Both the position numbers and the translations under genes were made by a program. From Phycisphaerales bacterium (lineage in GTDB: Bacteria; Planctomycetota; Phycisphaerae; Phycisphaerales; UBA1924): a stretch of 24,000 nucleotides of DNA. The stretch lies in the NCBI GenBank assembly GCA_965228645.1, contig OZ245827.1, forward strand, positions 1,911,694-1,935,693, given 5' to 3'. The notes beneath the pieces are model-generated. The model worked only from the letters and a program-made list of their open reading frames with translations. It was not told the origin of the DNA and searched no databases. Of this stretch, positions 1 through 24,000 are shown piece after piece; the stretch's first letter is position 1; each line of letters starts with the position of its first letter.

Positions 1-706
1 CTCGCCAGACTCCTCGAACTCGGGCGTCACGTCCACGGTCGCAAAGCTCGTCTGGCGTTTGCCCTGCGCGTTGAAGGGGCTCACGCGTGCCAGGCGGTGC
101 GTGCCTCGCTCGCAGTTAAGATACCCGAACACAAACGGGCCCTTGACGTGGAGCGTCACGTGGTCGATCCCGACCTCGGTGCCGTAGGACTTGCTGAGCT
201 CCTCGACCTTCCAGCCCTGGCGCTCGAAGTAGTACAGGTACATCCGCAGGAGCATCTCGGCCCAGTCGTTGGCCTCGGTCCCGCCGTCGCCGGCGCTGAT
301 CGTAAAGAAGCAGTCGCGGTGGTCGTGCTTGCCCGAGAGCAGCGACTGGAGCTCGAGCTTGTCCATCTGCCTTGTCAGGTCAAAGAGCGCGTTGTCCGCC
401 TCGACGAGCAGGTCGTCATCGCTCTCCTCGCGGGCCATCTCGTAGGCGAGCTTGGCGTCCTCGAGCTGGGCGGTCATCTTCTGGATGGGCTCGGTCTGGG
501 CCCGGGCGAGCTTGAGCTCAGCGAGCACCTTCTGGGCCTCGGTCTGGCTGTTCCAGAAATCGCTCGAGTTCATCCGCTCCGTCAGTTTCGCGACGGTCTC
601 GACCTTTTTGTCGTAGTTAAAGAGAGTCGCGGATCGTCAAAATCCGCGCCTCGAGGTCGTTGATGACCGGTGTATGAACCTGAAAGTGGAGCGTATTTTC
701 GTCCAT
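1..706 (-). CDS. prfB: Peptide chain release factor 2, partial (3' end lies beyond the left window edge). Requires a +1 programmed ribosomal frameshift.
   Basis: Minus-strand ATG at 706-704 gives MDENTLHFQVHTPVINDLEARILTIRDSL followed by an in-frame TAA (619-617). Shifting +1 (AAC at 618-616) continues NYDKKVETVAKLTERMNSSDFWNSQTEAQKVL...TISAGDGGTEANDWAEMLLRMYLYYFERQGW...RGTHRLARVSPFNAQGKRQTSFATVDV. This is colinear with E. coli RF2 (..RGYL/DYDAKKERLEEV.., [35 protein letters not shown]). The frame stays open to position 1. The ORF track does not list it because it has no stop in the window. Confidence 0.93.
616..622 (-). promoter_or_regulatory. prfB +1 programmed frameshift site, CTT TAA C
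   Basis: Reverse complement of 616-622 is CTTTAAC. The zero-frame Leu codon CTT (622-620) is followed by stop TAA (619-617). Only the +1 frame continues the RF2 homology. This has the same architecture as the classical CUU UGA C cassette, but with UAA. Confidence 0.85.
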
Positions 707-8433: not shown

Positions 8434-8701
8434 CGCCAGGGGTCTCCATCGGCGCTTCGATCACCCCGATCTGTTCGGGCGTGATCAGCATCGAGATCTC
8501 GGACCGCAGACGCCACAGTTCCTTGTCCTGCTGGGTCTGGCGGAGCCTGGCCGCGGATTGTTCATGAAAGGCCTGAAGCCGGAGCTGCCTGTATGACAGC
8601 AGCGAGAGCGAGATCACGCCGAGGCCGACGATCAGCACCGCGAGGCGGCTCGTCAGGCTCACGCCTGAGGCTGGGCCCTGCGTGTGATCGGCGCCTGTCA
8701 T
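8426..8701 (-). CDS. ftsL: FtsL-like small bitopic cell-division protein
   Basis: 91 aa. It has one TM helix (LAVLIVGLGVISLSLLSY) followed by a heptad/coiled-coil segment (RQLRLQAFHEQSAARLRQTQQDKELWRLRSEISML). It occupies the canonical position directly upstream of ftsI. The call rests on architecture and synteny, not sequence identity. Confidence 0.55.
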   Translation of the reverse strand: MTGADHTQGPASGVSLTSRLAVLIVGLGVISLSLLSYRQLRLQAFHEQSAARLRQTQQDKELWRLRSEISMLITPEQIGVIEAPMETPGDE

Positions 8702-9771
8702 GCCCGCTGCCCGCGCGGATAGCGCAGCTTCATCCCGACTCGGATGTCATCGGCGTCCTGGATCTGATCCTTGTTGAGCTCGATCAGCTCGTTCATGCGC
8801 CGGATCGTGCCCATCAGCTCCTGAGAGATCTCGCTGAGCGTGTCGCCCTTCTTGATCGTGTACGAGCCGTAGGCGCTGGTCGATTCCTGCGAAGGAGCCC
8901 TGCTCGTCTGCGTCTGTGCCGCAGCCTGGGGGCGGGTCTGCGCCGGAGCCTGGACCGGAGCCCGGGCGATCACGGTGCCCTCGCGCTGGGGGATCACGAG
9001 ACGGGCGCCCTCAAAGACACGCCCCTCCTCGTCGGCAGCCGACTTGTTCGCCTTGAGCAGCTCGGGCCAGAGATCCCCGTTGCCGTAGTACTTGGCCGAG
9101 ATGCCATAGAGCGTCTCGCCCTCGGCGACCATGTGCGTGATCTGCTTGACGGGCGGGGTCTGCTGGAGCGCCGGGCGCTGCTCGCCAGAAGACTGGAGCT
9201 TCCGGGCCAGCTGCTCTGCGGTGGGTGTGATCGGGTTGTTCGCAGTCGGGCGCCCGTACCCCTCGACCGGTTCGAACATGGATAGATCGAGCGGGCTCGC
9301 CTGTGCCGTCCGCCTGACTTCGACAATACTGCCCTCGTTCGAATCGATGCCCATCGCGCGATCGACAGGGTCCGAAACCTTGGGCATCAGATTGGCGACA
9401 CCGATGTCCTCGCGGGGCTGCTGCTGGTTCATCCCTGGCAGCGACTGCTGCATGGCAAGGCGGGTGCCGGGCCCCGGATCGATCTGCACCGCGTCACGAC
9501 CGGCTATCGGCAAACCCGATTCGCCGATGCCCGGAGGCACGTCCGCAAGCCGATTCACAACCATCGGCTGATCGATGTCCGTGTCGGCGATGATCGTGTC
9601 CGTCCGCGCACGCGAAAGGTGGTCGCTGATCAGCACGCCTACCGCAAGAATCAGGCTGAACCCGATGATGAGGGCGAGTTTCTGTTCGCGTGTCACGGCG
9701 CTTCCCTGCTCAGTAAGGCACGCAACGTGCCCTGGAACAACAACTTCCGTGTCGTTGCCCCGTTTCGTCAA
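8698..9771 (-). CDS. Membrane-anchored protein with two LysM peptidoglycan-binding domains
   Basis: 357 aa from TTG 9771-9769. An alternative GTG at 9696 is preceded by AGGGAAG. The TM helix is LALIIGFSLILAVGVLI. LysM 1 is HMVAEGETLYGISAKYYGNGDLWPELLKANKSAADEEGRVFEGARLVIP. LysM 2 is YTIKKGDTLSEISQELMGTIRRMNELIELNKDQIQDADDIRVGMKLRYP. Its stop overlaps the ftsL-like ATG (ATGA at 8698-8701). Confidence 0.85.
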   Translation of the reverse strand: MTKRGNDTEVVVPGHVACLTEQGSAVTREQKLALIIGFSLILAVGVLISDHLSRARTDTIIADTDIDQPMVVNRLADVPPGIGESGLPIAGRDAVQIDPGPGTRLAMQQSLPGMNQQQPREDIGVANLMPKVSDPVDRAMGIDSNEGSIVEVRRTAQASPLDLSMFEPVEGYGRPTANNPITPTAEQLARKLQSSGEQRPALQQTPPVKQITHMVAEGETLYGISAKYYGNGDLWPELLKANKSAADEEGRVFEGARLVIPQREGTVIARAPVQAPAQTRPQAAAQTQTSRAPSQESTSAYGSYTIKKGDTLSEISQELMGTIRRMNELIELNKDQIQDADDIRVGMKLRYPRGQRA

Positions 9772-9808
9772 TGGAACTCAGGCCCCGGACGCTCCGCCGG
9801 GTACGGGT

Positions 9809-10780
9809 TCATCGGCTTTCGTCCCTGATTTCCCTCAACACTTTGAGCACCCTGAATTTAGCCGAACGGGACCGAGGATTGGCCTCCTGCTCCGCCTCAT
9901 CCGCGATCGCCGGCTTGCGCGTGATCCGCTGGGCCAGACGCTCGCTCGCCAGGGCCACGAACGCTTGCTTGACCGGGCGATCCTCCAGTGAGTGGAAGCT
10001 GATCACCCCCACCCTTGCTCCGGGTGCCAGCCAGCACGCCCGCGCATCCGCAGCGCTCTCGAACTGCTTGGCCGCCCGTTCGACGTAAATCAAAAAAGCT
10101 TCGAGCGCCTCGATCTCTCCGTTGACTGCGATCCGAAGGGCCTGGAAGGTCCGGGTCGCCTGATCGATCCGACGGCGTCCCCTGGGCGGCGGGCCGGCCG
10201 CTCGCCGAACCACCTCGGCAAAGTCCGCGGTCCGCTCGAAGCGTTGTTCCTTGCGCCGGCGCACGATCGCGCCCGCGATCCGGCGTGAGGCCCGCTCCTC
10301 GCCGAACTGATAGATCAGGTCCGCAAGCTCGCCCTCGTCCATCTCATTGACGAGCTGGGCAGCCGTGATCCCCTGCGATCGATCCAGGCGCATATCCAGC
10401 GGGCCATCGTCGCGGAAGGTCAGCCCGCGCTGCGGATCCTCCACCTGATTCGAGGCAAACCCGAGATCGCCCAGGACCATGTCCGCCGAGATCCCAAGCT
10501 CCTCCATCGCGCGCGGCAGGTCCGCAAAGCTCCCGTGGATCGCTCTGATCTGGCCCTCAAACCCGCTCTGCCGCAGGTGCGCCTCAGCCCGCGACAGATT
10601 CCCCGCGTCAAGGTCGTTGAGTATCACGGTCCCGGTCGGACCGAGGCGCTGAGCGATCAGCGCCGCGTGCCCGCCCAGCCCCGCGGTCGCATCGGCGTAC
10701 ACCTCGCCAGCCTGCGGGGCGAGCAGCTCGAGCACCTGTGTCGCCAGCACCGGGATGTGTGTGTGTCCCTCTTCGGTCAT
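9809..10780 (-). CDS. rsmH: 16S rRNA (cytosine1402-N4)-methyltransferase
   Basis: 323 aa. HIPVLATQVLELL..VYADATAGLGGHA...ILNDLD...DLGFASNQVEDPQRGLTFR..GPLDMRL...ISFHSLEDRPVK...NPRSRSAKFRVL is a typical RsmH/MraW over its full length. Confidence 0.95.
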   Translation of the reverse strand: MTEEGHTHIPVLATQVLELLAPQAGEVYADATAGLGGHAALIAQRLGPTGTVILNDLDAGNLSRAEAHLRQSGFEGQIRAIHGSFADLPRAMEELGISADMVLGDLGFASNQVEDPQRGLTFRDDGPLDMRLDRSQGITAAQLVNEMDEGELADLIYQFGEERASRRIAGAIVRRRKEQRFERTADFAEVVRRAAGPPPRGRRRIDQATRTFQALRIAVNGEIEALEAFLIYVERAAKQFESAADARACWLAPGARVGVISFHSLEDRPVKQAFVALASERLAQRITRKPAIADEAEQEANPRSRSAKFRVLKVLREIRDESR

Positions 10781-10822: not shown

Positions 10823-11827
10823 ATGAGAACTCTTGCCATCACCGTCGCCCTGGCTGCCAGCTTCTCGCTCGGGTGCATGCCAAAGTCCATCACCATCCAG
10901 CTGAGCCCAGACCGGGGCAGGGTCAAGCAGCGCGTCGTCCTCCGCGACCAACTGGGCGGCCCGAAGGTCGCCCAGATCGACCTGACCGGCGTCATCACTT
11001 CCGCCCAGACCTCCGCCTTCGGCTCGCCAGCCCTGCTCGACGACATGGCGCTCATGCTCCGGCAAGCCCAGCACGACCCGAGCGTGTGCGCGGTCCTGCT
11101 CCGCATCAACTCCCCGGGGGGCTCGGTCGCTGCCAGCGAGACACTGGCCAACATGATCGAAGACTTCAAACGCCAATCCGGGAAGCCGGTCGTCGCGTCG
11201 ATGGACGAGGTCGCCGCCAGCGGCGGGTACTACACCGCCATCACCGCGGACCGCATCATCGCACAGCCCTCAACGATCACCGGCTCGATCGGCGTCATCG
11301 TCCCAACCATGAACGTCGCAGACGGGCTCGCCCGCATCGGCATCAAGTCACGCTCGGTCACCAGCGGCCCGAACAAGGACATCGCAAACCCACTCCAGCC
11401 CATCAACGAGGCGCACTACACCATACTCCAGGGCATCGTTGACGAGTTCTACGCGGACTTCCGCGCCCGCGTGATCACCGCCAGGCCCAATATTCAGAAT
11501 CCGGACAGCACCCTCGACGGCTCCGTCTACACCGGCCGAAAGGCCCTCGAACTCGGGCTCGTCGATCAGCTCGGCGGCATCCCCGAAGCGTTCGCGGAGG
11601 CCAAGCGCCTCGCGGGCGTCGATTCCGCGATCCTCGTCAAGTACCACCGAGGCGGGCCCGCGCCGCTGACGCCCTACGCCTCGGTCGCTTCCCAACCACT
11701 CCTGCCCGAGCAGCAGAGCACTCTCGGCTCGATCCTCGGCTGGCAGGATCGAATCCGTCAGACCGGCGCCAACGATCCGGGCTTTTATTACCTCTGGCTC
11801 CCGCCCAGTTCGCTCGGGCTCGAGTGA
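10823..11827 (+). CDS. sppA: Signal peptide peptidase SppA (S49 family, 36K type), predicted lipoprotein
   Basis: Starting at ATG 10823 gives MRTLAITVALAASFSLG|C (lipobox). S49 blocks are present: VLLRINSPGGSVAASE, VVASMDEVAASGGYY, TGSIGV and RVITARP...GRKALELGLVDQLGG. The track ORF from 10535 would overlap rsmH and is rejected as an extension. Confidence 0.9.
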   Translation: MRTLAITVALAASFSLGCMPKSITIQLSPDRGRVKQRVVLRDQLGGPKVAQIDLTGVITSAQTSAFGSPALLDDMALMLRQAQHDPSVCAVLLRINSPGGSVAASETLANMIEDFKRQSGKPVVASMDEVAASGGYYTAITADRIIAQPSTITGSIGVIVPTMNVADGLARIGIKSRSVTSGPNKDIANPLQPINEAHYTILQGIVDEFYADFRARVITARPNIQNPDSTLDGSVYTGRKALELGLVDQLGGIPEAFAEAKRLAGVDSAILVKYHRGGPAPLTPYASVASQPLLPEQQSTLGSILGWQDRIRQTGANDPGFYYLWLPPSSLGLE

Positions 11828-12549
11828 GCCGAGGCCCGACGCGCCGACGCCTCGTCCGCCATCGCGCCGAACCGCTCGCCCATGCGCTGCGCCATCAGGG
11901 CCTTGACGTGCTCCATGCTCGGGCACGCCTCGCCCATGAGCCGGCGCAGACTCGTCACGGGCCTCCCGTGCAAGCCGCAGGGCACGATCAGACCAAAGTG
12001 ATCGAGCTGCGGGTCGACATTGAGCGCCAGCCCGTGGAGCGTCGCCCATCGGCGCACACGGACACCGATCGCCGCGATCTTGGCGAGCTCCGTCCCGTCG
12101 CGTGTCCAGACGCCCGTGGCGCCCTCGTCGCGCTGGCTCTGAACACCGAGATCCGCGAGCACTCCGATGATGATCTCCTCGAGTGCGCGAAGGTATTCGA
12201 TGATCCGGCAGTTCAGGCGATTGAGGTCGACGATCGGGTATACCACGAGCTGTCCCGGGCCGTGATAGGTCACATCGCCCCCACGGTCGGTTTCCTCGAG
12301 CGAGACGCCGTGCATCGCCAGCAGTTCGGGCGTTGCGATGACATGCTCGCTCACGCCGGGTCTGCGGGTGACCGTGATCACAGGGTCATGCTCGACAAAG
12401 AGCACCCGCCCGATCGAGTCGCCCTCTTCGCTGCGTCCCTCGAGAATGGCGCCGTGTCGTGCGTTCTGGATGCCGTACGCCTCGGCATACGACTTCCGCC
12501 CGAGATCCTCGATGATCAGTCGAACCTGCACGTGGGATGGTAGTTCCAT
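11788..12549 (-). CDS. lipB: Octanoyltransferase (lipoyl(octanoyl) transferase)
   Basis: YAEAYGIQ...VLFVEHDPVITVTRR...TDRGGDVTYHGPGQLVVYPI...KIAAIGVRVRRWATLHGLALNV...IVPCGL is characteristic of LipB. The start is taken at ATG 12549 (MELPSHVQVRLII..). A GTG at 12612 is the longest alternative. The 3' end overlaps sppA by 40 nt. Confidence 0.92.
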   Translation of the reverse strand: MELPSHVQVRLIIEDLGRKSYAEAYGIQNARHGAILEGRSEEGDSIGRVLFVEHDPVITVTRRPGVSEHVIATPELLAMHGVSLEETDRGGDVTYHGPGQLVVYPIVDLNRLNCRIIEYLRALEEIIIGVLADLGVQSQRDEGATGVWTRDGTELAKIAAIGVRVRRWATLHGLALNVDPQLDHFGLIVPCGLHGRPVTSLRRLMGEACPSMEHVKALMAQRMGERFGAMADEASARRASAHSSPSELGGSQR

Positions 12550-14261: not shown

Positions 14262-14663
14262 ATGACACAAACCAACGACCCCGATATCACTACCCAGAAA
14301 CCCAGGCAGCGCGAGCAGGCCCGCACCTTTGCGGTCGAGGCGGCTCGATGCCTGAAGGACACCCAGTGCTCCGATGTGGTGGTGCTCGACCTCAAGGGGC
14401 AGAGCCCAGTGGCTGAGCTCCTGGTCATCGCAACGGGCACGTCTGACCGCCAGATGAAGAGCGCCGCAGACGATGTCTCCGAATTGGCGTCCAAGACCGG
14501 TCATGCGCTGATCCGCCAGGCTGCGGACACACGGCACACCTGGATCGTTTCCGACTTCGGCGACGTGGTCATGCACATATTCGAGCCCGACGCACGCGAC
14601 TACTACGACCTTGAACGCCTCTGGGGCGCTGCGGAGAAAATCAGCTGGGCACGCGAGGAGTAA
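14262..14663 (+). CDS. rsfS: Ribosomal silencing factor RsfS (Iojap family)
   Basis: 133 aa. DVVVLDLKGQSPVAELLVIATGTSDRQMKSAADDV...WIVSDFGDVVMHIFEPDARDYYDLERLW is the canonical RsfS/DUF143 pattern. Confidence 0.9.
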   Translation: MTQTNDPDITTQKPRQREQARTFAVEAARCLKDTQCSDVVVLDLKGQSPVAELLVIATGTSDRQMKSAADDVSELASKTGHALIRQAADTRHTWIVSDFGDVVMHIFEPDARDYYDLERLWGAAEKISWAREE

Positions 14664-14670
14664 GCGAGCC

Positions 14671-15825
14671 ATGACCTTCAGCGTTCCCGTCCAGACCGCA
14701 TCGGCCAGCTATGACGTCTCGATCGGACCGGGCCTGCTCCCGGATCTCGGAGGCGTGCTCAGGAAGCACGCGCCCGACGCCAGGCGGATCTACGCCGTGG
14801 TGGACTCCGGCGTGCCCGTTGCGACCGTCGAGCCCGCAGCGGCATCGATCCGCAGCGCGGGGTACGAGTTTGATGCGCTGACGATCACCCCCACCGAGCA
14901 GGCCAAATCCGCCGAGACGTGGTACCTGATCCTGCGCGCTGCAGCCGAGGCCCGTCTCGACCGGGGCGATGTCTTCGTAGCCATCGGTGGCGGGATTGTG
15001 GGTGACATGACCGGCTTCGCGGGCGCGAGCTACCGCCGGGGTGTGGGCGTCATCCAGTGCCCCACCACTCTGCTGTCGATGGTCGATGCCTCTGTTGGCG
15101 GCAAGACCGGGATCAACATGCCTTCGAGCGACGGATTGCTCAAGAACGCGGTCGGCTCGTTCCACCAGCCGCTGGCGGTCGTCGCTGACACCGCCTCGCT
15201 CGCTTCCCTCTCACCCCGCGATTACCGCTCGGGCCTGGCTGAGTGCGTCAAGCACGCGTTGCTCAGCGCCGACTTTGGCGATGCGGAACTGCACACCTGG
15301 ATGATGCATCACGAGAGCGAGATTCTGGCACAGGACCCGGGCGCGCTGACCGAACTTGTGCGCCGGAACGTGGCGGTGAAGGCCGCGGTGGTTGCCGGCG
15401 ACGAACGCGAGAACGCACCTGGCGACATGGGACGGGCGCTGCTGAACCTCGGTCACACCTTTGCCCACGCGATCGAGACACTCCCGGGTGTTTCAGTCCA
15501 AGGCTCATCCGATGCCTGCCCGATCACGCACGGCGAAGCCGTCGGGCTGGGCCTGATCTGCGCGGGCCATCTGAGCGCTCAGCTCGGTCACACCAACGGG
15601 CTCGTCGATCGCTTGCGAGAGCAGCTTGGCGCTCTGGGACTGCCAACCCACGCTGTGGGCTTGCCAGAGGGCGACACGGTCCTGGCCCGGATGGCCCACG
15701 ACAAAAAGGCAGAGTCGGGACAGATCCGGTTTGTGGTGCCCATCGACGAGGGTCGCTGCCGGGTCGTCCGCGAAGTGCCCGAAGAGGCGGTCCGGATGGC
15801 CCTGGACGCGATCCGCCCGGGCTGA
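14671..15825 (+). CDS. aroB: 3-dehydroquinate synthase
   Basis: Starting at ATG 14671 (MTFSVPVQT..): VAIGGGIVGDMTGFAGASYRRGVGVIQCPTTLLSMVDASVGGKTGIN, NAVGSFHQP, ECVKHALL and LNLGHTFAHAIE. The track start at 14611 lies inside rsfS. Confidence 0.95.
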   Translation: MTFSVPVQTASASYDVSIGPGLLPDLGGVLRKHAPDARRIYAVVDSGVPVATVEPAAASIRSAGYEFDALTITPTEQAKSAETWYLILRAAAEARLDRGDVFVAIGGGIVGDMTGFAGASYRRGVGVIQCPTTLLSMVDASVGGKTGINMPSSDGLLKNAVGSFHQPLAVVADTASLASLSPRDYRSGLAECVKHALLSADFGDAELHTWMMHHESEILAQDPGALTELVRRNVAVKAAVVAGDERENAPGDMGRALLNLGHTFAHAIETLPGVSVQGSSDACPITHGEAVGLGLICAGHLSAQLGHTNGLVDRLREQLGALGLPTHAVGLPEGDTVLARMAHDKKAESGQIRFVVPIDEGRCRVVREVPEEAVRMALDAIRPG

Positions 15826-15958
15826 GACAGACCCCCGTGTCAAACAAGGCAAACTTGGAGCGGCAGGCGAGGCCCGGACGATAACCCGTGCAGGACGCCC
15901 ACGGGCCAGCGCCAAGCGGCGCGGCTGCGTGGCGGATCCAATTTGCGGGAGCCCAGCC

Positions 15959-17449
15959 GTGCGCACAGTCGTCATCGTCAATCAAAAGGGTGGCTGCGGC
16001 AAGACCACCACCGCGATCAACCTCGCCGGGATCTGGGCCAGCCGGGGCAAAAGAGCCCTGCTGATCGATCTGGACCCGCAGTCGCACTGCGCCGCGGGTC
16101 TTGCGATCCCCGAGCAACGGATCGATCTGGACATCAGCGACGCGCTCATCACCGATGCGCCGCTGGACCCGAATCGACTCGTCTGGAGCGCGGGACGCAA
16201 TCTCGATCTGATTCCGAGCCGAACCAAGCTGGCGGGCCTCGAAGCCGCCCGGGGCGGGCTTGCGACCAAGCCAGACAAGGAACTCCGACTCGCCCGCGTC
16301 GTCAAGCGCTTCGAGAACGACTACGACGTCTGCCTCATCGACTGCTCGCCCTCGATCGGTCTGCTGACCTACAACGCGCTCGCCGCGGCGACGGACGTGC
16401 TCGTCCCCGTCGAAACCGGCTTCTTCAGCCTGCAAGGCGCACTCAAGCAGGCCAAAACGATCGAATCCCTCCAGCGCCGTCTGGGCGTCAATGCGCCCTT
16501 CTACCTGCTGGCCACACTCCACGAGCCGGAATCCGTGCTCGCCTGCGACCTGCTCCAGGAACTCCGCAGGCGCTTTGGCGATCAGGTCATCCCGACCCCG
16601 ATCAGACGGGATCTGAAGCTCAAGGAGGCCGTCAGCTTCGGTCAGCCCGCGGTCGAATACGCCCCGGAATCGACCGGCGCCCGCGATCACTCGGATCTGG
16701 CACACTGGCTCGAGGCCAAGTGGCGTCCGACCGATCGACCGACGCATCCGGTGGCCCTGAGCGCCCAGCCCGCGGACTCGTTCCCGGCTGGACGCCCGGA
16801 GATGGACCTCGACCTCTGTGTTTCCCAGGCACCCGAGATCCGGGAGCAGCCCAGTGACTTCGGGTTCGGTCAGCCCGAGTTTGAGCCCGCGACCGCAGCA
16901 GCTTCGACCGCGGTCGCGACGGCACCGGTCAGCGAAGCTCGAATCAACGCCCTCACTCAGCCCAGAGCGGGCGACACGCGCGTCGCAGAGATCGCTGCAC
17001 TCGCCAAGCGCCTGCGTGAAGCGACCCTCCAGGGCTCGCCTGCTCGCTCGGTGACACAGGCACCGACGACCGCGGTCCGCCTCGAAGAATCAAAGCCCGA
17101 GATCGAGCCCTCCGGTGCCCCATCCAAGACCAAGGAAGCCCTCGGCAGGGAACTGCTGGGCGTGCGCCAGACGCCCCAGGGTGTGCTCTTTGTCCAGCCC
17201 ATCGCGACCGGTCGCCAGCTGGCGATCGCGGGCGACTTCAACGGATGGTCCATCCGGGCCAACCGCATGATCGCCGATCCGCGTCTTGGCGTGCACCAGA
17301 CGTGCGTCCACCTGCCTCCGGGTCGACACCGCTACCGCGTCGTCGTGGACGGGCGGTGGATCGCAGACCCCCACAACCCGGTCATCGAACCCAACGAGTA
17401 CGGTGAAACCAACAGCGTGGTTGTGGTCGAGCCCCCCAAGGGGACATAA
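15959..17449 (+). CDS. ParA/MinD-type deviant Walker A ATPase fused to a C-terminal CBM48 / AMPK-beta-like glycogen-binding domain
   Basis: GTG 15959 is preceded by GGGAG (15947-15951). There is no in-frame ATG between the track start at 15626 (inside aroB) and this codon. The N-terminus is VRTVVIVNQKGGCGKTTTAINLA (KGGxGKT), followed by LLIDLDPQ and VCLIDCSPS (Walker B); the ATPase domain spans about 15959-16730. A ~150-aa Pro/Ala/Glu-rich linker follows. The C-terminal region (17180-17434), LAIAGDFNGWS...VHLPPGRHRYRVVVDGRWIADPHNP...GETNSVVVV, aligns by eye with AMPK-beta VYLSGSFNNWS...LPEGEHQYKFFVDGQWTHDPSEP...GTVNNIIQV. Confidence 0.85.
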   Translation: MRTVVIVNQKGGCGKTTTAINLAGIWASRGKRALLIDLDPQSHCAAGLAIPEQRIDLDISDALITDAPLDPNRLVWSAGRNLDLIPSRTKLAGLEAARGGLATKPDKELRLARVVKRFENDYDVCLIDCSPSIGLLTYNALAAATDVLVPVETGFFSLQGALKQAKTIESLQRRLGVNAPFYLLATLHEPESVLACDLLQELRRRFGDQVIPTPIRRDLKLKEAVSFGQPAVEYAPESTGARDHSDLAHWLEAKWRPTDRPTHPVALSAQPADSFPAGRPEMDLDLCVSQAPEIREQPSDFGFGQPEFEPATAAASTAVATAPVSEARINALTQPRAGDTRVAEIAALAKRLREATLQGSPARSVTQAPTTAVRLEESKPEIEPSGAPSKTKEALGRELLGVRQTPQGVLFVQPIATGRQLAIAGDFNGWSIRANRMIADPRLGVHQTCVHLPPGRHRYRVVVDGRWIADPHNPVIEPNEYGETNSVVVVEPPKGT

Positions 17450-17505
17450 TCCCGCATCAGAACACACACCGGCGGCGGAGCCGCTGAACTTCCCAGGAGA
17501 TCACG

Positions 17506-18756
17506 ATGAGCTCGGAAGCTCCATCCGGTCGTCCGTCCAGCAGCGTGTCCGGTCTCGAAGCCTTCGATGACCTTGCGGACCTCTTCCTCGGCGAAGAGCC
17601 CATCGTCACGCCTCGCCAGACCAGCGACACTTCAGTCCACGTCAGCTCGCTCGTCGCCGGGCACCTGCCCGTGATCGCGGCCCCGTGGATCAGCCAGCAC
17701 GCCCGCGACATCTCCCGCACGCTCGCGGCACCGATCGCGGTGCTGAGCCGATCGGGCGATCGCACCACGCTCGACCTGTACAACGCGCCCGCCCTCCAGG
17801 AACAGCACACGATCGAGGGGGCCATCGAGCAGGCGATCGCAGCCCGTGTGCGCCGGTTCCTGATCCGGACGGACGCGGTGAGCGAGCTCTCGGCGTTCGA
17901 TCTCGACAGGGTCGACTCGGTCACGCTTCTGACCGGTGCGGACGACGCCGCGGTGGTCGGCGCGTACCGCGCGATCAAGGGACTTGTCGCGGACGCCTCG
18001 GAGCTCGACGAGCGCCCGATGGTCCTGAACCTTGCTGTCATGGGCTCGGATCGCACAAGGTCCCGCGGGGCCGCGGAAAAGATCCGCAAGGCGGCCCGTT
18101 CGTTCCTGCAGACCGGGCTTGCGGACGTGACGATGAGCGAGAAGATCGCCGCCGGTGGCTCGAGCGTGCGCACGTTCGATGGCTCAACGACCCTGCAGCT
18201 CGAAGAGATCATCGCCAGAATCCCGCGTCAGCTGCCTGCGGTCGCTCCGGCTCAGGTTGACACTGCGGGCCCTTTGCGTCTGGCGGGGCACGGGAGCAGC
18301 GAGAAGCCGACCGGTGAACCCAAAGCTGTCCCGACCGAGGCCAAACCGATTCGCCCGGATGTCAGCGCCTCCCGCCTTGGCCCTCTTGAGAGCGCCAATG
18401 GGACGAACGCTTCGCTGCTCGGACTCTCGCGGATCGAGGCTCGCTGCCCGTACGCGGACGACATCGAGATCGCTGTCGATCACGAGGGTCGAGCGCACCT
18501 GATCGCGGTGGCGGAGGGTCAGGACATGGCCCGCCCGCTCGAGTCGCTCCAGATCGCCAACGACTGGATCGGGGCGCACCTGACGCTGCTGGCGTCTGCG
18601 ACCGGCGGGCGCGTGAAGGCCAACCCGCCTCTGGCGGCGGCGAGACACCTGATCGTCGACCACGCCGCGTCGGCGCGCCGCCTGCTCGACTCGGACCTGA
18701 AAGTCTACATCAAGGCCCGCGGGCAGCAGGAAACGCTCTGCGTGCCGCTGAACTAA
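17506..18756 (+). CDS. Hypothetical 416-aa protein. The N-terminal half may be a P-loop-less ParA/MinD-like fold, and the C-terminal domain is unknown.
   Basis: ATG 17506 has AGGAG at 17495-17499. The gene lies 56 nt after the ParA-like gene and ends at a strong terminator. It has G/C third-position bias and a non-repetitive composition. See findings for the manual alignment to MinD. I recognised no catalytic motifs. Confidence 0.75.
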   Translation: MSSEAPSGRPSSSVSGLEAFDDLADLFLGEEPIVTPRQTSDTSVHVSSLVAGHLPVIAAPWISQHARDISRTLAAPIAVLSRSGDRTTLDLYNAPALQEQHTIEGAIEQAIAARVRRFLIRTDAVSELSAFDLDRVDSVTLLTGADDAAVVGAYRAIKGLVADASELDERPMVLNLAVMGSDRTRSRGAAEKIRKAARSFLQTGLADVTMSEKIAAGGSSVRTFDGSTTLQLEEIIARIPRQLPAVAPAQVDTAGPLRLAGHGSSEKPTGEPKAVPTEAKPIRPDVSASRLGPLESANGTNASLLGLSRIEARCPYADDIEIAVDHEGRAHLIAVAEGQDMARPLESLQIANDWIGAHLTLLASATGGRVKANPPLAAARHLIVDHAASARRLLDSDLKVYIKARGQQETLCVPLN

Positions 18757-18782
18757 TCGACCGATTGAGAGTGACCAAAGAA

Positions 18783-18815
18783 AGAGCCGCGACCATACGG
18801 TCACGGCTCTTTTTC
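18783..18815. terminator. Bidirectional rho-independent terminator between convergent genes
   Basis: AGAGCCGCGACC (18783-18794), loop ATAC, GGTCACGGCTCT (18799-18810) form a 12-bp stem with one mismatch. The stem is flanked by AAAGAAAG upstream and TTTTT downstream, so each strand sees a stem followed by a U-tract. Confidence 0.7.
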
Positions 18816-18835
18816 GTTGAGTTGAGTTTGTCGGT

Positions 18836-20155
18836 TCAGGCGGTCTCGGCCCGCTTGACGCGGATCTCGCTGAGCTTCTTCTTCTCGCGGATGGTCGTCT
18901 CGTCGACGACAAACTCCACGCCCTCGGCGTCCATGTCGGGCAGATCGTACATCAGCTCGAGCATGGTCTCTTCCATCACAGCGCGCAGGGCGCGGGCACC
19001 GGTCTCACGCTTGGCGGCCTTCTCGGCCAGCGCCTTGAGCGCGCCGTCGGTGAAGGACAGCTTGGCGCCTTCGAGCTCGAACTGCTTCTGGTACTGACGC
19101 ACCAGCGCATTGCGCGGCTCGGTGAGCACGCGGACGAGCGCATCGACCGGGAGCGGACGCAGGGCCGCGATGATGGGCAGTCGCCCGATGAACTCGGGGA
19201 TCATGCCGTATTCGACGAGGTCGTCGGGGGTGACCATCTGGAGCAGGTCGCCCTTTTCCTGGTCTTCCGAGTGCGTCGAGCCCGTATCGACGAAGCCGAT
19301 TCGGGTCTTTCCGATGCGCCGGCGGATGATCTCGTCCAGCCCAACGAACGTGCCGGCGCAGATGAAGAGCACCTGCGTCGTGTCGATCTGGATGTACTGC
19401 TGCTCGGGGTGCTTGCGTCCGCCCTGAGGGGGGACATTGGCGACGGTGCCCTCGAGCATCTTGAGGAGGCTCTGCTGCACGCCCTCGCCCGAGACGTCGC
19501 GGGTGATCGAGACGTTGTTGGAGGTCTTGCCGATCTTGTCGATCTCATCGATGTAGATCACGCCGCGCTGCGCCTGCTCGACGTCGAAGTCAGCGGCCTG
19601 GAGCAGCTTGAGCATGAGGTTCTCGACGTCTTCTCCGACGTAACCGGCCTCGGTGAGCGTGGTCGCGTCGCCGATGGCGAAGGGGACCTTGAGCACGCGG
19701 GCCAGGCTCTTTGCGAGGAGGGTCTTGCCGCAGCCGGTCGGCCCGATCATGAGGATGTTTGATTTGTCGAGTTCGACGTCGCCGTCGTTCGTTCCTCGCT
19801 GGATTTCCTGCAGGCGCTTGTAGTGGCTTCGCACCGCGACGGCGAGCGGCTTCTTGGCCTCGTCCTGCCCGATGACGTACTCATCGAGGAAGGTCTTGAT
19901 CTCAGAGGGCGTCGGCACTTCTGTGAACAGCGGCGCATCGGCGCTGACGCGCCGGCGTTCCTGCTTGAAAATGTTCTGGCAGAGATCGACGCAGTTGGAG
20001 CAGATGTAAACGTCGTTTGGCCCTTCGACCATGGGGCCGACGTCGCGGCTGGTTTTGCCGCAGAACGAGCACGTTGTCACGCGCCTCCCGCGGAAGCCCT
20101 CGCCCGTGGTGCCCGGGGTCTCGCCGGTGCCGTCGTTATCGCGACCTTTGGCCAT
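18836..20155 (-). CDS. clpX: ATP-dependent Clp protease ATP-binding subunit ClpX
   Basis: 439 aa. It has an N-terminal zinc finger (CSFCGK...CSNCVDLC), Walker A (GPTGCGKT), Walker B (IIYIDEIDK) and a ClpP-docking loop (RIGF). It is ClpX-like over its full length. Confidence 0.97.
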
Positions 20156-20649: not shown

Positions 20650-20667
20650 CTCACGGATGTGTTTCTC

Positions 20668-21429
20668 TCAGAACGTCGTGATCGCGCGACGGATCGGGAG
20701 CACGAGCGCCGGGATCATCGCGTGCTCGACCAGGTGCTCGCCCCGACGGGCCAGCTCCGTGTAGGTCGACGTCAGTTCGTCGAGATTCGTCAGTGGGCCG
20801 CTCTGCCTCGCGGTCAGGTAGATGCTGATCGGCTCGCCCGTGTGCTCGCCCTCGCGGGCGGAGCCGTGCTGACGCGTTTTGACTTCGTACTGGATCTCGG
20901 TGCCCGGGCTGTCGGGGACGTTGGTCGTCAGGACGGGCTGGCAATCGGTTACGGAGCAATCGTGCACGAGCAGATTGGCCAGGGGCGAGTCGGCGACCAG
21001 CGCCGAGTAGACCGCCTCGTCGTGGTTGCCGCTGGCGATCAGATCCGCGCCGAAGAGCAGCTCGATGGAATCGATATCCAGAGGGCTGATGTTGAGGTAA
21101 TACGGGATGACCTCGAGGATGTGCCTGTGCAGGTCGTGCGCCGAGCGAAAGTCTGCGGGGTTGACGATGCCCGAGCGGATGTTCCGCGAGCGGACCGCGA
21201 GCCATCGGTAGGGCGACTCGCCTTGAGCGGTTTCGAGTGCCAGCTCCTCGCCGTGACGACCGAACTGGCTCATCGAGGGATACTGCCGGCGGACACGGTC
21301 GAATAATTCGAGCACGGTCTCGCGGCTCTTTGTCAGCTCGAGCTTCAGGCTGACCTTGAGATTGACGTAGGCATCGGAGACGAGAGCCTTGAGGCTGTCG
21401 AGCGTGTCGTATGAGGTGGCACCGGACAT
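20668..21429 (-). CDS. Hypothetical protein (253 aa), no recognised domain
   Basis: ATG 21429-21427 has a strong SD, AAGGAGGAG, 8 nt upstream. Codons are mostly G/C-ending and the composition is balanced (MSGATSYDTLDSLKALVSDAYVNLKVSLKLELTKSRETVLELFDRVRRQYP...). The overlapping ORFs at 20236-21306(+) and 20651-21454(-) are Arg/Asp/Gly-rich junk. The track start at 21507 is an upstream extension. Confidence 0.75.
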   Translation of the reverse strand: MSGATSYDTLDSLKALVSDAYVNLKVSLKLELTKSRETVLELFDRVRRQYPSMSQFGRHGEELALETAQGESPYRWLAVRSRNIRSGIVNPADFRSAHDLHRHILEVIPYYLNISPLDIDSIELLFGADLIASGNHDEAVYSALVADSPLANLLVHDCSVTDCQPVLTTNVPDSPGTEIQYEVKTRQHGSAREGEHTGEPISIYLTARQSGPLTNLDELTSTYTELARRGEHLVEHAMIPALVLPIRRAITTF

Positions 21430-21552
21430 CTTGATCGCTCCTCCTTGAAACCATGATCGGCCGGGCCTGAAGGATACGCTGACGCGGGCGTATGCGTTCC
21501 GCCCCACCGCTGCATACAGGCGAACTTCTGTCGGCTGAGCGCGAGCGGCGTG

Positions 21553-21825: not shown

Positions 21826-22143
21826 GGAGCTTAGGTCCGAGATCCGCGTTTCGGGGCCAGAAAGCGTGTCTGTTAGGGCCTTGGATTGAAAGTCGATGGA
21901 CGAAGCGGAATCCCGTGCTACCGTTTCCGTAGAGAAGCAGGCAGAGCGCGACCCCCATGGTCTGTGAGCCGGGAGCCATCAAGGCGTCCTCCGGCCCGGA
22001 CAACCCCAAACGGCGCGCCCGGGCCCCTTTGAATCATTCGAATCGGCGTTGGCCGAGCCGGTGCGAGCAGGCACTGGTCGAACGCTGCATGGTCGGTTGA
22101 AGCCGTCGCATGCGGTCTGAGTTACGGATACAGGGATCCCGGG

Positions 22144-24000
22144 ATGACCCCGGGCATTTGGGGCATGGATCGGCCTGTGATGCACGACACCTCTGGAACT
22201 GACGATGTCCAGCGCGTCCGCGACGCGTCGGACATCGTCCGCGTGGTGGGCGAGCACGTCGAGCTCCGCGCCAAGGGGCGCGAATACGTCGGGCTCTGCC
22301 CCTTCCACGACGACAAGAAGCCCTCGATGAATGTCGTGCCCACCAAGCAGATCTTTCATTGCTTCAGCTGCGGGGCGGGGGGCGACGTCTTCACGTTCGT
22401 GCAGGACTACCACAAGATGACCTTTCGCGAGGCGCTCAAGTTCCTGGCCGAGCGCGCGGGTCTCAAGCTCGAATCGCGCGGGCGCCGGCGCAGCGCCTCC
22501 GACGATGCCGACAGCGTGAACCGATCGGTCCTCCTGGAAGCCAACGAGCTGGCCGACAAGTTCTTCCGCTCGATCCTGCGCCACCCCGAGCACGGCCAGA
22601 AGGCCCGCGACATTATCGCACGCCGGGGCATCAGCCAGGACATGGTCGACGCCTTCGGGCTCGGGGCCGCTCCGGACCGCTGGGATGGGCTGGCGCTCTA
22701 TCTCGCGGAGAAGGGGCACAAACTCGATCCGTTCCTCAGCGCAGGCCTGCTGAAATCCTCGGAGCAGGGCAAGGGCCCCTACGACGCGCAGCGGAATCGC
22801 CTTGTCTTCCCGATCCGCGATCAGATCGGGCGCGTCATCGCCTTCGGCGGGCGCCGGATCAACGACGAAGACGAGCCCAAGTACATCAACAGCGCTGAGT
22901 CGGCGGCCTTCGACAAGTCCGCGACGCTCTTTGGGCTCGACCTTGCCAGCCGGGCGATCCAGAAAGAGGGCATTGCGGTCATCGCCGAGGGGTACACCGA
23001 CGTCATCGCCTGCCACCAGGCGGGGCTGACCAACGCGGTCGCGACGCTCGGAACAGCGCTGACGCCCAAGCACGCCAAACTGCTTCAGAGGCTCTGTCAC
23101 ACTGTGGTCCTGCTCTTCGATGGCGACGAGGCGGGCCAGAAAGCCGCGGACCGCGCGGTTGAGGTGTTCCTGACGCTTCCGATCGACGCGAAGATCGCGA
23201 CGCTGGCTGGGTTCACGGACGCCAAGGACCCGGACGAGCTTCTGAAGCGTGAGGGCGGTCTGGGCGTGCTGCGCTCGGCGATCGCCGGCGCGACCGAGCT
23301 GCTCGCGTACCGAATCGCTCGGCTGCGCTCGAGGCTGGCCAGCGCGGGCCCCGCTCAGACCGAGCGGGCGATCCGAGACGAGCTCCGCTCTCTTGGCGCC
23401 CTCGGGCTTGCGAGCGCGGACAAGGTTCGCTGGCAGTTTGTCGTGCGCCGCTTGAGTGAGCTGACCGGGCTTGACGCCCAGACGATCGCGGATCTCGTCC
23501 GCGAGGGCGCCCAGCGCGGCACGCGCGGCCCGACCTTTCAGGACCTCTCCGAGGCGGAAACAGCGCCTGCTCGTCACCGGCACAAGTCGATGAATGCGGA
23601 GATCCTCGGGTGCCTGCTGTCGCTACCGGAGCGCTGGATCTCGCTGGGCCAATCGCAGGATGACCTCAAAGCCGCGACAGAGGGATCTCCTTACGAGGCG
23701 GTCTTCGAGGCGATGCGGGACGTCGCGGAGCACACCGGGCGGACAGAGATCGCCCGGGTGGTGGACCTGATGCGTGAGCGTGAGCAGGACCACCGCGTCG
23801 TGGTGCAGCTCGAGCAGGACATCTCCCGTCGGCTCGTTGGCAACCGCGAGCAGATCGCGGAGACGCTCACGATCTGTCTGCGGAATCTCTCGCAACACGT
23901 TGCAATCATCGAACCCAAACCCGATTCCGTGGCGGACAGGTTGGCTCGATTGAAGACCATGAAAGAGCAGTCGGGGCCCAATACGCGGCTCCTGCCCCGT
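22144..24000 (+). CDS. dnaG: DNA primase, partial (3' end lies beyond the right window edge)
   Basis: The frame is open from 22144 to 24000. The track does not list it because there is no stop in the window. Zinc finger: GLCPFHDDKKPSMNVVPTKQIFHCFSCGAGGDVFTF. Further blocks are RLVFPIRDQIGRVIAFGGRR, KYINSAES..FDKSATLFG and the TOPRIM motif IAEGYTDVIACHQAG..NAVATLGTALT...VVLLFDGDEAGQKAA. Three in-frame ATGs (22144, 22165, 22180) could be the start. Confidence 0.93.
   Translation, partial: MTPGIWGMDRPVMHDTSGTDDVQRVRDASDIVRVVGEHVELRAKGREYVGLCPFHDDKKPSMNVVPTKQIFHCFSCGAGGDVFTFVQDYHKMTFREALKFLAERAGLKLESRGRRRSASDDADSVNRSVLLEANELADKFFRSILRHPEHGQKARDIIARRGISQDMVDAFGLGAAPDRWDGLALYLAEKGHKLDPFLSAGLLKSSEQGKGPYDAQRNRLVFPIRDQIGRVIAFGGRRINDEDEPKYINSAESAAFDKSATLFGLDLASRAIQKEGIAVIAEGYTDVIACHQAGLTNAVATLGTALTPKHAKLLQRLCHTVVLLFDGDEAGQKAADRAVEVFLTLPIDAKIATLAGFTDAKDPDELLKREGGLGVLRSAIAGATELLAYRIARLRSRLASAGPAQTERAIRDELRSLGALGLASADKVRWQFVVRRLSELTGLDAQTIADLVREGAQRGTRGPTFQDLSEAETAPARHRHKSMNAEILGCLLSLPERWISLGQSQDDLKAATEGSPYEAVFEAMRDVAEHTGRTEIARVVDLMREREQDHRVVVQLEQDISRRLVGNREQIAETLTICLRNLSQHVAIIEPKPDSVADRLARLKTMKEQSGPNTRLLPR

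Follow-up and report, generated by a model that had tools for sequence, protein, structure and literature searches.

ParA-CBM48, a Soj-type ParA ATPase joined to an AMPK-beta-like CBM48 module and conserved across the Phycisphaerae

The locus and its genes

The window analysed here is a 24,000-nucleotide stretch of DNA from a Phycisphaerales bacterium (GenBank assembly GCA_965228645.1, contig OZ245827.1, positions 1,911,694 to 1,935,693 of the forward strand). It carries a gene whose product, termed ParA-CBM48 in what follows, is a cytoplasmic single-chain fusion of a Soj-type ParA ATPase, a disordered linker and a CBM48 module. The features of this gene and of the one that follows it are collected in Table 1. 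The motifs listed in an initial annotation of the sequence were all found where it had placed them, each being statistically significant.

Table 1. Features of the ParA-CBM48 gene and its downstream partner (positions in the window; residues of the encoded protein)
Feature	Position	Strand	Basis or remark
Shine-Dalgarno-like GGGAG	15947..15951	+	7 nt 5' of GTG start; read from sequence
Complete ParA-linker-CBM48 gene	15959..17449	+	Uninterrupted translation, 496 aa + stop
Soj-type ParA ATPase domain, residues 1-255	15959..16723	+	Pfam, PDB sequence matches, AF2, Foldseek
Deviant Walker A KGGCGKTT, residues 10-17, signature Lys10 and Lys15	15986..16009	+	Conserved in 241 sequences
Walker A'/switch I region DLDPQSHC, residues 37-44, family-specific His43-Cys44	16067..16090	+	
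Walker B VCLID, residues 124-128	16328..16342	+	D128 invariant
Basic cluster R203-R205, R216, R217, K220, K222	16565..16624	+	Overlaps Soj non-specific DNA-binding patch positions
Disordered Ala/Pro/Glu/Ser-rich linker, residues 256-399	16724..17155	+	pLDDT <50 at 273-323, 359-389
Conserved linker helix, residues 339-357, DTRVAEIAALAKRLREATL, near-invariant Arg341	16973..17029	+	AF2 helix 341-357
CBM48/AMPK1_CBM glycogen-binding module, residues 400-493	17156..17437	+	Pfam, PDB sequence matches, AF2
Partner gene, 416 aa	17506..18756	+	AGGAG 8 nt before ATG; directly downstream

The ORF starts with the GTG at 15959, which has GGGAG upstream. This start is favoured because homologues share the spacing of the Walker A motif from the N-terminus, KGGCGKT following 9 residues in nearly all of them; a longer ORF from the upstream TTG at 15626 is ruled out by the homologue starts and by the GGGAG in front of the GTG. 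A promoter and terminator scan of positions 15700-19000 gave no signal exceeding background.

Among the nearby genes are rsfS, aroB and clpX, with rsmH-ftsI further upstream, and this synteny with housekeeping genes is restricted to Phycisphaerales. The six-frame ORFs of the window and of loci L001-L084 contain neither a ParB box (GERRxRA) nor a second ORF with a Walker A motif. Pfam annotation of the genes in the window and in five related places brought up no parB, min, bcs or carboxysome families. Glycogen-metabolism genes were absent from the window, from 26 non-Phycisphaerales loci compared by all-against-all ORF clustering, and from the five Pfam-annotated related places. The CBM is the sole link to glycogen, and the lack of a neighbouring glycogen gene counts against the granule-holding reading proposed below.

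In 58 of 80 genome loci, and in loci L002 and L003, the partner gene, which the initial annotation had overlooked, immediately follows the ParA-CBM48 gene in the same orientation. It is family-restricted and adjoins the ParA-CBM48 gene in Phycisphaerales and Tepidisphaerales. Its product is predicted to begin with an FDxLADLFLG helix, to continue through a P-loop-less MinD/FlhG-like domain (approximately residues 42-240) and a disordered linker, and to end in an alpha/beta domain (residues 300-416). The sequence has no match in Pfam, NCBIfam or PDB sequences, a partner profile likewise found nothing among PDB sequences, and hhalign comparison with the ParA family was not significant (probability 0.2%). 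The AlphaFold2 (AF2) model (pLDDT 83) has FlhG, ParA, FleN, McdA and MinD as its top Foldseek matches (probability 1.0, TM 0.42-0.46), and so modestly points to a MinD/FlhG-like fold without a P-loop.

The ATPase domain

The ATPase domain matches Pfam AAA_31 (E 9.6e-42) and CbiA (E 4.3e-18) and, among PDB sequences, the ParA of 8ray (5.8e-42) and Thermus thermophilus Soj (3.7e-37). Its AF2 model, with pLDDT above 90 over residues 1-255, matches Soj/ParA structures in Foldseek at TM 0.91 (rmsd 1.9-2.0 A), and those of MinD, FlhG and McdA at TM 0.75-0.85. Conservation was measured in 241 sequences from two branches, 121 from that of the window and 120 from Sedimentisphaerales. Walker A residue K15 occurs in 241/241, K10 and C13 each in 240/241; D37, D39, H43 and C44, at and just after the DLDPQ motif (residues 37-41), are invariant, as is D128 of Walker B. 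Judged by these motifs the ATPase is predicted to be catalytically intact. Four family-specific invariant residues, C13, H43, C44 and W76, distinguish it from Soj.

The protein had initially been described as a ParA/MinD ATPase. The deviant-Walker-A assignment holds; the MinD side does not, the protein being Soj/chromosomal-ParA-like and carrying its CBM at the place of the C-terminal membrane-targeting helix of MinD. The reading as a MinD-like membrane ATPase was therefore rejected: the C-terminus lacks an amphipathic helix, no min genes lie nearby, and Soj is a much closer relative. The NCBIfam minD_bact score is 37 bits, against a cut-off of 213.

In Bacillus subtilis Soj the non-specific DNA-binding patch comprises R189, K201, R215 and R218 (PMC6393308). 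Transferring the residues listed there through an alignment with T. thermophilus Soj places E191, R203, R217 and K220 at the equivalent positions of the window protein. R203 and R217 are retained in the window's branch, where R204, R205, R216 and K/R222 are further basic residues; the Sedimentisphaerales branch has R191, R/K203 and K/R220 in 120/120 sequences, but F217. Nucleoid binding by the ATPase is plausible, since the nearest solved relatives are the DNA-binding Soj/ParA proteins and the basic residues of the patch are partly kept.

At two patch positions the window's branch departs from Soj: no sequence has a basic residue at position 191 (R189 equivalent), and only 38% have one at position 220 (R218 equivalent). 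This counts against a model of nucleoid-bound cargo.

These comparisons bear on whether ParA-CBM48 might be simply a chromosomal partition ParA (Soj) that acquired a CBM, serving segregation with a ParB encoded elsewhere and with glycogen at most hitch-hiking. The ATPase is indeed closest to chromosomal Soj/ParA in sequence and structure, each locus examined has a single gene of a family found throughout the class, source databases call members 'chromosome partitioning protein', and Sedimentisphaerales members retain the arginines with which Soj binds DNA. We nevertheless regard this reading as improbable: the window and loci L001-L084 are free of ParB boxes, no ParB family occurs among the Pfam-annotated genes in the window and the five related places, the score for the NCBIfam ParA_partition equivalog (92.8 bits) is below the cut-off of 180, the invariant C13, H43, C44 and W76 differ from Soj, and the downstream partner is a different, family-restricted protein.

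The CBM48 module, the linker and the family

A CBM48 profile search was significant and above the curated cut-off: AMPK1_CBM (PF16561) matches residues 417-493 at E 8e-13 (48.8 bits, gathering score 26.8), over profile positions 10-82 of 85 (73 positions), and homologues additionally match PF02922 CBM_48. When the last 99 aa of the window protein were compared with PDB sequences by phmmer, the top matches were the CBMs of AMPK beta2/beta1 (2f15, E 1.6e-9; 1z0n, 2.7e-8), followed by those of the starch phosphatases SEX4 and LSF1. The phmmer alignment reproduces the motif-by-motif pairing with the AMPK-beta CBM that had been proposed from the sequence (FNGWS/FNNWS, HRYRVVVDGRW/HQYKFFVDGQW and ETNSVVVV/TINNLIHV). 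AF2 predicts a confident all-beta domain, with nine beta-strands at residues 401-490 (pLDDT ~96); Foldseek results for the full-length model are dominated by the ATPase, and the all-beta character of the module is read from the predicted strands. Pfam, the sequences of solved structures, structure prediction and family-wide conservation thus concur on the AMPK-beta-like CBM48 identity first suggested for this region.

In a HMMER alignment to 2f15, AMPK residues W100, K126, W133 and N150 correspond to W430, R460, W467 and N485. The first three of these are present in 241/241 family sequences and N485 in 236/241; the initial annotation was right to single out both sugar-stacking tryptophans and the Asn of the last strand. 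The AMPK Lys126 position is taken by an invariant Arg (R460) in the family. Glycogen binding by AMPK beta1 is lost in W100G and K126Q and weaker in W133L (PMC6274970). The alignment indicates that the CBM48 module keeps all four AMPK-beta glycogen-contact equivalents checked.

This conservation has to be set against a reading in which the CBM binds a protein, or nascent polysaccharide at a synthase, and ParA-CBM48 localises an envelope or exopolysaccharide machine in the manner of BcsQ. BcsQ is the best-scoring NCBIfam model and a strong Pfam match, and the AMPK-beta CBM also contacts proteins. The BcsQ score, however, is far under its cut-off (96 versus 158 bits), no bcs or other synthase genes lie nearby, and the invariant CBM residues are precisely the sugar-stacking and hydrogen-bonding ones, so that we consider this reading very improbable.

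The linker is ~145 aa long in the window protein, 104-239 aa across its branch and 53-125 aa in Sedimentisphaerales. It is found in every member yet varies in sequence and length, which matches the expectation for a spacer or tether. The initial description of it as flexible and low in complexity holds in so far as it is disordered and variable; it is not featureless, since a helix at residues 339-357 is conserved, its R341 being present in 110/121 sequences of one branch and 118/120 of the other.

Both domains occur together in 120/120 of the best listed homologues of the window protein and in 120/120 of those of a distant Sedimentisphaerales member. Searches with family-specific motifs, among them the pattern D[LM]DPQSHC, gave at least 589 confirmed places in species-representative genomes from Phycisphaerales, Tepidisphaerales and Sedimentisphaerales. 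Of 80 genome loci, 73 show both domains, with one gene per locus. Among the best 150 of 6455 CBM matches in 1.84 billion representatives, no other ParA type was fused to CBM48, every fused match carries KGGCGKT, and the closest relatives of the CBM outside the family are secreted tandem-CBM48 proteins. Throughout the class Phycisphaerae the ParA-CBM48 gene is conserved in the manner of a housekeeping gene, and the fusion is under selection. That it might be an assembly or frameshift artefact of two genes has a negligible probability: the same single ORF, with no frameshift and no separate products, recurs in 240/240 listed homologues from independent assemblies and in the 73 two-domain loci, and nothing was found in favour of an artefact. 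The single product assumed from the outset is accordingly what the family shows. Database labels of homologues are 'AAA family ATPase' and 'chromosome partitioning protein', and hundreds of such entries could be re-annotated.

Four lineages have lost the CBM. The linker helix is kept in three of the four CBM-less variants, and the partner gene is downstream in three CBM-less lineages; the sequence of locus L047 ends 77 bp past the stop. That these lineages mostly keep ATPase, helix and partner implies that the core system has some glycogen-independent function. The existence of CBM-less lineages counts against glycogen as the cargo.

Proposed function and comparison with known systems

ParA/MinD ATPases place chromosomes, plasmids, carboxysomes, chemoreceptor arrays, flagella and division sites, and to our knowledge a separate adaptor couples ATPase to cargo in every well-studied case. 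ParA/McdAB disperses carboxysomes, and PhaM does likewise for PHB granules. We tentatively favour the reading, a strong possibility if short of a probable one, that nucleoid-bound ATP dimers of ParA-CBM48 hold glycogen granules through two CBMs and so space or partition them. The ATPase would form an ATP-sandwich dimer on a large surface, most likely the nucleoid to judge from other ParA proteins, and each dimer would present two CBM48 modules on long tethers, gripping multivalent glycogen (alpha-glucan) particles. Cycles of ATP binding and hydrolysis would then attach and release granules along the nucleoid, such that granules are dispersed and both daughters inherit some. Cargo recognition would be built into the ATPase, with no need for an adaptor like ParB or McdB. 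Where the MinD-like, P-loop-less partner is present, in Phycisphaerales and Tepidisphaerales, it is presumably co-transcribed and probably regulates the ATPase cycle, perhaps as an ATPase activator or a pseudo-dimer partner acting through its conserved N-terminal helix. The initial annotation suggested that a granule could be tethered some way off the nucleoid or membrane, which would fit the anatomy of the protein.

The standard ParA diffusion-ratchet scheme requires a cargo-bound ATPase activator, and a ParA permanently joined to its cargo does not fit it. A more specific proposal, which we hold to be doubtful, is an adaptor-free, ATP-switchable glycogen partition machine in which the linker helix and the partner replace the ParB/McdB activator. 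In a bolder version, glycogen load may feed back on the cell cycle through the ATPase, placing AMPK-like logic on a ParA.

The AMPK-beta CBM gates AMPK on glycogen, and ParA-CBM48 could by analogy be a sensor of glycogen status, its CBM sequestering or allosterically gating the ATPase so that the state of the carbon store steers a different ParA-type process: segregation of the chromosome, for example, or where these FtsZ-less bacteria divide, or how active the downstream pseudo-ATPase is. In type the module is regulatory, like those of AMPK-beta and SEX4; the neighbouring genes serve housekeeping and the cell envelope rather than storage; the Arg-bearing helix conserved in the linker might have a regulatory role; and the glycogen-independent core function indicated by the CBM-less lineages, which mostly keep ATPase, linker helix and partner, would suit a sensor. 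The findings point to no particular target process, however, the long variable linker resembles a tether more than an allosteric connection, and the housekeeping synteny is confined to Phycisphaerales; we rate the sensor as unlikely.

Few carbon stores are as widespread in bacteria as glycogen, and we know of no system that positions or partitions it there. No paper describing a ParA-CBM48 fusion, or bacterial glycogen being actively positioned, came up in a full-text literature search. ParA-CBM48 is, as far as we know, the first candidate machine for placing glycogen granules, or sharing them out, in a bacterial cell. Should the adaptor-free partition machine prove real, no bacterium would have provided an earlier example of a polysaccharide store that is actively positioned or segregated, and the cargo would be bound in cis, a topology new for ParA. 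Glycogen positioning becomes directly testable through a ParA that is found class-wide and has a conserved, built-in, predicted glycogen module. An additional gain is a family-restricted pseudo-ATPase partner in poorly studied planctomycetes; the Phycisphaerae, as far as we know, divide without FtsZ.

Of the known systems, chromosomal ParA/Soj (1WCV from T. thermophilus, 6IUB from Helicobacter pylori, and 8RAY) has the same fold (TM 0.91, 33-36% identity). Its small ATPase, the absence of an N-terminal extension, the Walker B motif, the switch Asp residues and a deviant Walker A carrying the signature Lys recur in ParA-CBM48, which also has basic residues at some positions of the DNA-binding patch. 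It differs in its ~240-aa C-terminal extension (linker and CBM48), in lacking an adjacent parB, its downstream partner not being ParB, and in its invariant C13, H43, C44 and W76, as against the Soj consensus KGGVGKT and DPQGN.

BcsQ, a MinD/ParA-family localisation factor for cellulose synthase, is ParA-family and polysaccharide-linked, and is both the top NCBIfam match (TIGR03371) and a full-length Pfam match (CBP_BcsQ). Its score of 96.3 bits is under the cut-off of 157.85, and its TM of 0.79 is lower than the 0.91 of Soj. Orthology with BcsQ was rejected on the score and on the absence of bcs genes from every neighbourhood examined.

With the orphan systems McdA/McdB, PomXYZ, ParC/ParP, PpfA/TlpT and MipZ, ParA-CBM48 shares a proposed logic, that of a nucleoid ParA-type ATPase distributing non-DNA cargo, and like orphan ParA systems it belongs to a small operon encoding a family-specific partner. 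In McdA/McdB and the other orphan ParAs, cargo binding and ATPase activation fall to a separate adaptor; in ParA-CBM48 the proposed cargo-binding module is part of the ATPase polypeptide. McdA itself has weak sequence similarity to ParA-CBM48 (E 1e-11), and McdB is a disordered protein, whereas the partner described here is predicted to be folded, P-loop-less and MinD-like.

The best sequence matches of the CBM, from AMPK beta (1Z0M, 1Z0N, 2F15), SEX4 and LSF1, are cytosolic non-catalytic modules that bring a regulatory or enzymatic partner to alpha-glucan, as is predicted here. Those modules belong to a kinase scaffold or a phosphatase, that of ParA-CBM48 to a P-loop ATPase; unlike that of AMPK beta, it is bacterial, restricted to Phycisphaerae and has Arg at the Lys126 position. 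Finally, PhaM and PhaF tether PHB granules to the nucleoid, and mammalian Stbd1 tethers glycogen to membrane through a CBM20. As in these proteins, a storage-polymer module is joined to one that binds a large surface, an arrangement that would anchor granules and allow their equal inheritance. PhaM, PhaF and Stbd1 are passive tethers without an ATPase, whereas a ParA-CBM48 anchor would be ATP-switchable.

A Soj-type ATPase fused to a CBM48 module

The initial annotation read ParA-CBM, the 496-aa protein of the window with ParA ATPase, linker and CBM48, as a ParA/MinD ATPase fused to an AMPK-beta-like module. Since homologues almost all place KGGCGKT nine residues from the N-terminus, the GTG at 15959, with GGGAG 7 nt upstream, is the likely start, rather than the TTG at 15626 to which the frame stays open in the six-frame list. 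Pfam finds AAA_31 (E 9.6e-42), CbiA (E 4.3e-18) and CBP_BcsQ (E 3.3e-13), and AMPK1_CBM (PF16561) over residues 417–493 (E 8e-13, 48.8 bits; gathering score 26.8). When the last 99 residues are compared with all PDB sequences by phmmer, the AMPK beta2/beta1 CBMs come first (2f15, E 1.6e-9; 1z0n, 2.7e-8), followed by the starch phosphatases SEX4 and LSF1, and the alignment to the PDB AMPK beta CBM pairs the same motifs that the initial annotation had paired. With an uninterrupted frame and matches to both Pfam and PDB sequences, the fusion as first read is confirmed at sequence level, far beyond chance; ParA-CBM has every sequence-testable feature of the ParA/MinD superfamily and of CBM48/AMPK1_CBM. 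We give practically no weight to an artefact.

In an AlphaFold2 model built on a family alignment of 91 sequences, the ATPase domain superposes on B. subtilis Soj, ParA 8RAY, T. thermophilus Soj and H. pylori Soj with TM-scores of 0.86–0.91 (Foldseek; rmsd 1.9–2.6 Å, 33–36% identity). McdA, BcsQ, MinD and FlhG rank lower, sequence searches agree, and scores stay below every NCBIfam equivalog cut-off (BcsQ, 96 versus 158 bits; ParA_partition, 93 versus 180); the ATPase is therefore a diverged Soj-type ParA. A MinD identity was rejected on this ranking and on the absence of a MinD-like terminal amphipathic helix, and a BcsQ identity on its rank and score. ParA-CBM lacks at least one defining feature of each of the Soj/ParABS, MinD, BcsQ and McdA subfamilies.

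Features of ParA-CBM, its partner and their surroundings (nucleotide positions are those of the window unless a locus is named)
Feature	Position	Strand	Remarks
ParA-CBM gene	15959–17449	+	single open ORF, 496 codons and stop
ATPase domain	residues 1–255		AlphaFold2, pLDDT mostly above 90
Cys13	15995–15997		P-loop
His43-Cys44	16085–16090		switch I
Trp76	16184–16186		
Last ATPase helix, DYxALAxWL	16709–16723		
Linker, disordered stretches	residues 273–323 and 359–389		AlphaFold2
Linker helix	residues 341–357		AlphaFold2, pLDDT 63–76
C-terminal all-beta domain	residues 400–490		AlphaFold2, pLDDT about 96
Partner gene	17506–18756	+	416 aa; ATG 56 nt after ParA-CBM stop; AGGAG 8 nt before ATG
Partner part 1, short conserved N-terminal helix	17563–17592		AF2; FDxLADLFLG (invariant LxxLFLG)
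Partner part 2, alpha/beta domain	residues 42–240		AF2
Partner part 3, disordered stretch			AF2
Partner part 4, second, C-terminal domain	residues 300–416		AF2; conserved CPYA, His, Trp
CBM-less ParA versions (four species)	L047 6001–6972; L048 6001–6984; L053 6001–6996; L073 4212–5207		
Division/cell-wall cluster remnant (rsmH/mraW, LysM protein, ftsI-type PBP)	6508–10780	-	5–9 kb upstream of ParA-CBM
ORFs with no Pfam or NCBIfam match	5512–6507; 20651–21454; 21979–23583	+; -; -	
ORF with no Pfam match	11348–12049	-	L001 counterpart matches LplA-B_cat

Conserved sites in the two domains

Conservation was counted in an alignment of 241 family sequences, comprising the window's branch (121) and a Sedimentisphaerales branch (120). 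The catalytic residues K10, K15, D37, D39 and D128 are invariant or nearly so, as are C13, H43, C44 and W76, which depart from the Soj consensus (KGGVGKT, DPQGN). Two cysteines and one histidine near the presumed dimer interface might confer redox or metal sensitivity. In the CBM, W430, R460 and W467 occur in 241/241 and N485 in 236/241, while position 481 is Phe/Tyr in 238 and Leu in 3; a HMMER alignment equates W430, R460, W467, N485 and position 481 with AMPK beta W100, K126, W133, N150 and L146. In the AMPK beta1 CBM, glycogen binding is abolished by W100G and K126Q and weakened by W133L (PMC6274970). We consider it improbable that the module binds a ligand other than glycogen. Linker sequence and length (median 155 aa in the window's branch, 77 aa in Sedimentisphaerales) are unconserved, except for the linker helix, where R341 is found in 110/121 and 118/120 sequences, respectively. 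As read from these data, ParA-CBM is a cytoplasmic protein with an intact Soj-type ATP switch, an intact predicted alpha-glucan site and a long flexible spacer, conserved across a bacterial class.

The non-specific DNA-binding patch of B. subtilis Soj consists of R189/K201/R215/R218 (R182/R194/R208/R211 in T. thermophilus Soj), of which R189 and R218 are validated by mutagenesis (HpSoj-DNA paper, PMC6393308). Alignment to T. thermophilus Soj places E191, R203, R217 and K220 of the window protein at these positions. No sequence of the window's branch has a basic residue at position 191 and 38% have one at position 220, with R203, R204, R205, R216, R217 and K/R222 each conserved at ≥88%; the Sedimentisphaerales branch has R191, R/K203 and K/R220 in 120/120. 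These basic residues make nucleoid binding plausible, more clearly in the Sedimentisphaerales branch.

Distribution, neighbourhood and partner

All 120 best database homologues (45–94% identity, 456–655 aa; named sources Phycisphaera, Phycisphaerales and Planctomycetota MAGs) have ParA domains and PF16561, and both domains are likewise present in the 120 best homologues, named Sedimentisphaerales, Anaerohalosphaeraceae or Phycisphaerae, of a distant member that is 35% identical (L068). Searching one genome per GTDB species for the family-specific peptides NQKGGCGK and D[LM]DPQSHC gave at least 589 confirmed stretches. The best 80 loci belong to Phycisphaerales, Tepidisphaerales and Sedimentisphaerales: 73 encode both domains in one ORF, three are truncated by contig ends, and in four a genuine stop after the linker removes the CBM. 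The linker helix survives in three of these four CBM-less variants, and L048, L053 and L073 still have the partner gene downstream; all four are useful natural controls for the contribution of the CBM. Some records (L048, RHKP01000016.1; L019, L050, L065, L077, L078) are labelled Cyanobacteria, Isosphaeraceae or Pirellulales. All of them carry the Phycisphaerae-type gene, L048 together with its synteny, and such labels probably reflect MAG mis-binning or loose taxonomy, not true occurrence outside Phycisphaerae.

When the CBM alone was searched with phmmer against 1.84 billion representatives, every ParA-fused protein among the best 150 matches carried KGGCGKT, so proteins of this architecture appear to form one family. 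The fusion is genuine and ancient. The remaining close relatives among these matches are secreted, with 3–18 tandem CBM48 repeats. The closest (P0184–P0261 and similar) form a large group with a signal peptide, ∼480 aa and four tandem CBM48-like repeats, and giants have up to 18; sequence starts and motif counts reveal no apparent catalytic motif.

Neighbours in the window are housekeeping genes: valS, the rsmH - LysM protein - ftsI block, and genes for an S49 peptidase and an MBL-fold protein. Upstream of ParA-CBM come a methyltransferase-like ORF and then, directly adjoining, rsfS and aroB; clpX is downstream and convergent. The longest aroB ORF (TTG at 14611) overlaps the rsfS end by 53 nt (14611–14663), and the true start is probably downstream. 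The order MBL - rsfS - aroB - ParA-CBM - unknown persists in genomes where ParA-CBM is only 49% identical to that of the window, and ORF clustering of 26 non-Phycisphaerales loci found no conserved neighbour except the partner and an MBL-fold gene. The division/cell-wall arrangement also occurs in L001 and L002; to our knowledge the Phycisphaerae-type bacteria of this analysis lack FtsZ, and the proximity of this remnant to a ParA-like system may be meaningful or mere chance. The window and loci L001–L084 show neither a ParB box nor a second Walker A ORF, and parB, min, bcs and glycogen-metabolism families are all absent from the Pfam annotations of the window and five related places. On the flanks surveyed, it seems unlikely that ParA-CBM is a chromosomal ParA with an added module, near as its ATPase is to Soj.

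Directly 3′ of the ParA-CBM gene, on the same strand, 58 of the 80 loci carry the partner gene, including all Phycisphaerales-type loci that extend far enough and eight clustering with labelled Tepidisphaerales MAGs. It was not found in Sedimentisphaerales-type loci, where ParA-CBM stands alone among variable neighbours. The partner matches nothing in Pfam, NCBIfam or the PDB sequences and has only 47 database homologues, the named ones all from the same clade. In its four-part AF2 model (pLDDT 83) the first domain resembles FlhG, ParA, FleN, McdA and MinD (Foldseek, best E 1.8e-4), with probability 1.0 yet TM-scores of only 0.42–0.46; GHLPVxAxPW occupies the expected P-loop site in the family. 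The model suggests, with moderate confidence in the fold, a MinD/ParA-like pseudo-ATPase, which is probably a functional partner of ParA-CBM. Its N-terminal motif resembles the last ATPase helix of ParA-CBM, the sole region paired by hhalign (not significant, probability 0.2%); the likeness may be chance or helix mimicry.

A possible role in glycogen-granule positioning

Full-text literature searches turned up no account of a ParA-CBM48 protein or of any system by which bacteria actively position glycogen, and databases label the homologues ‘AAA family ATPase’, ‘chromosome partitioning protein’ or ‘hypothetical protein’. What is new, as predicted from sequence, is that a ParA-type positioning ATPase would carry its cargo recognition fused in cis and have a pseudo-ATPase as partner.

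We infer function from domain identity alone. ATP-bound dimers would bind the nucleoid, their two tethered CBMs would hold multivalent glycogen particles, and ATP hydrolysis would release the granules, which would thus stay spread out over the nucleoid and pass to both daughter cells; the partner and the linker helix could regulate the ATPase cycle. We hold this reading tentatively, and its main weaknesses are four: no genomic context ties the gene to glycogen metabolism, the window's own branch has an incomplete DNA-binding patch, a ParA tethered in cis is an awkward fit for the diffusion-ratchet scheme, and CBM-less lineages occur, mostly with helix and partner retained. A glycogen-status sensor gating another ParA-controlled process seems to us a weaker candidate, though one to be kept in mind. 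The architecture is undescribed, clean and class-wide, and makes granule positioning directly testable. Such a role would be analogous to those of McdAB for carboxysomes and PhaM for PHB granules, from which ParA-CBM differs in carrying its cargo-binding module in cis.
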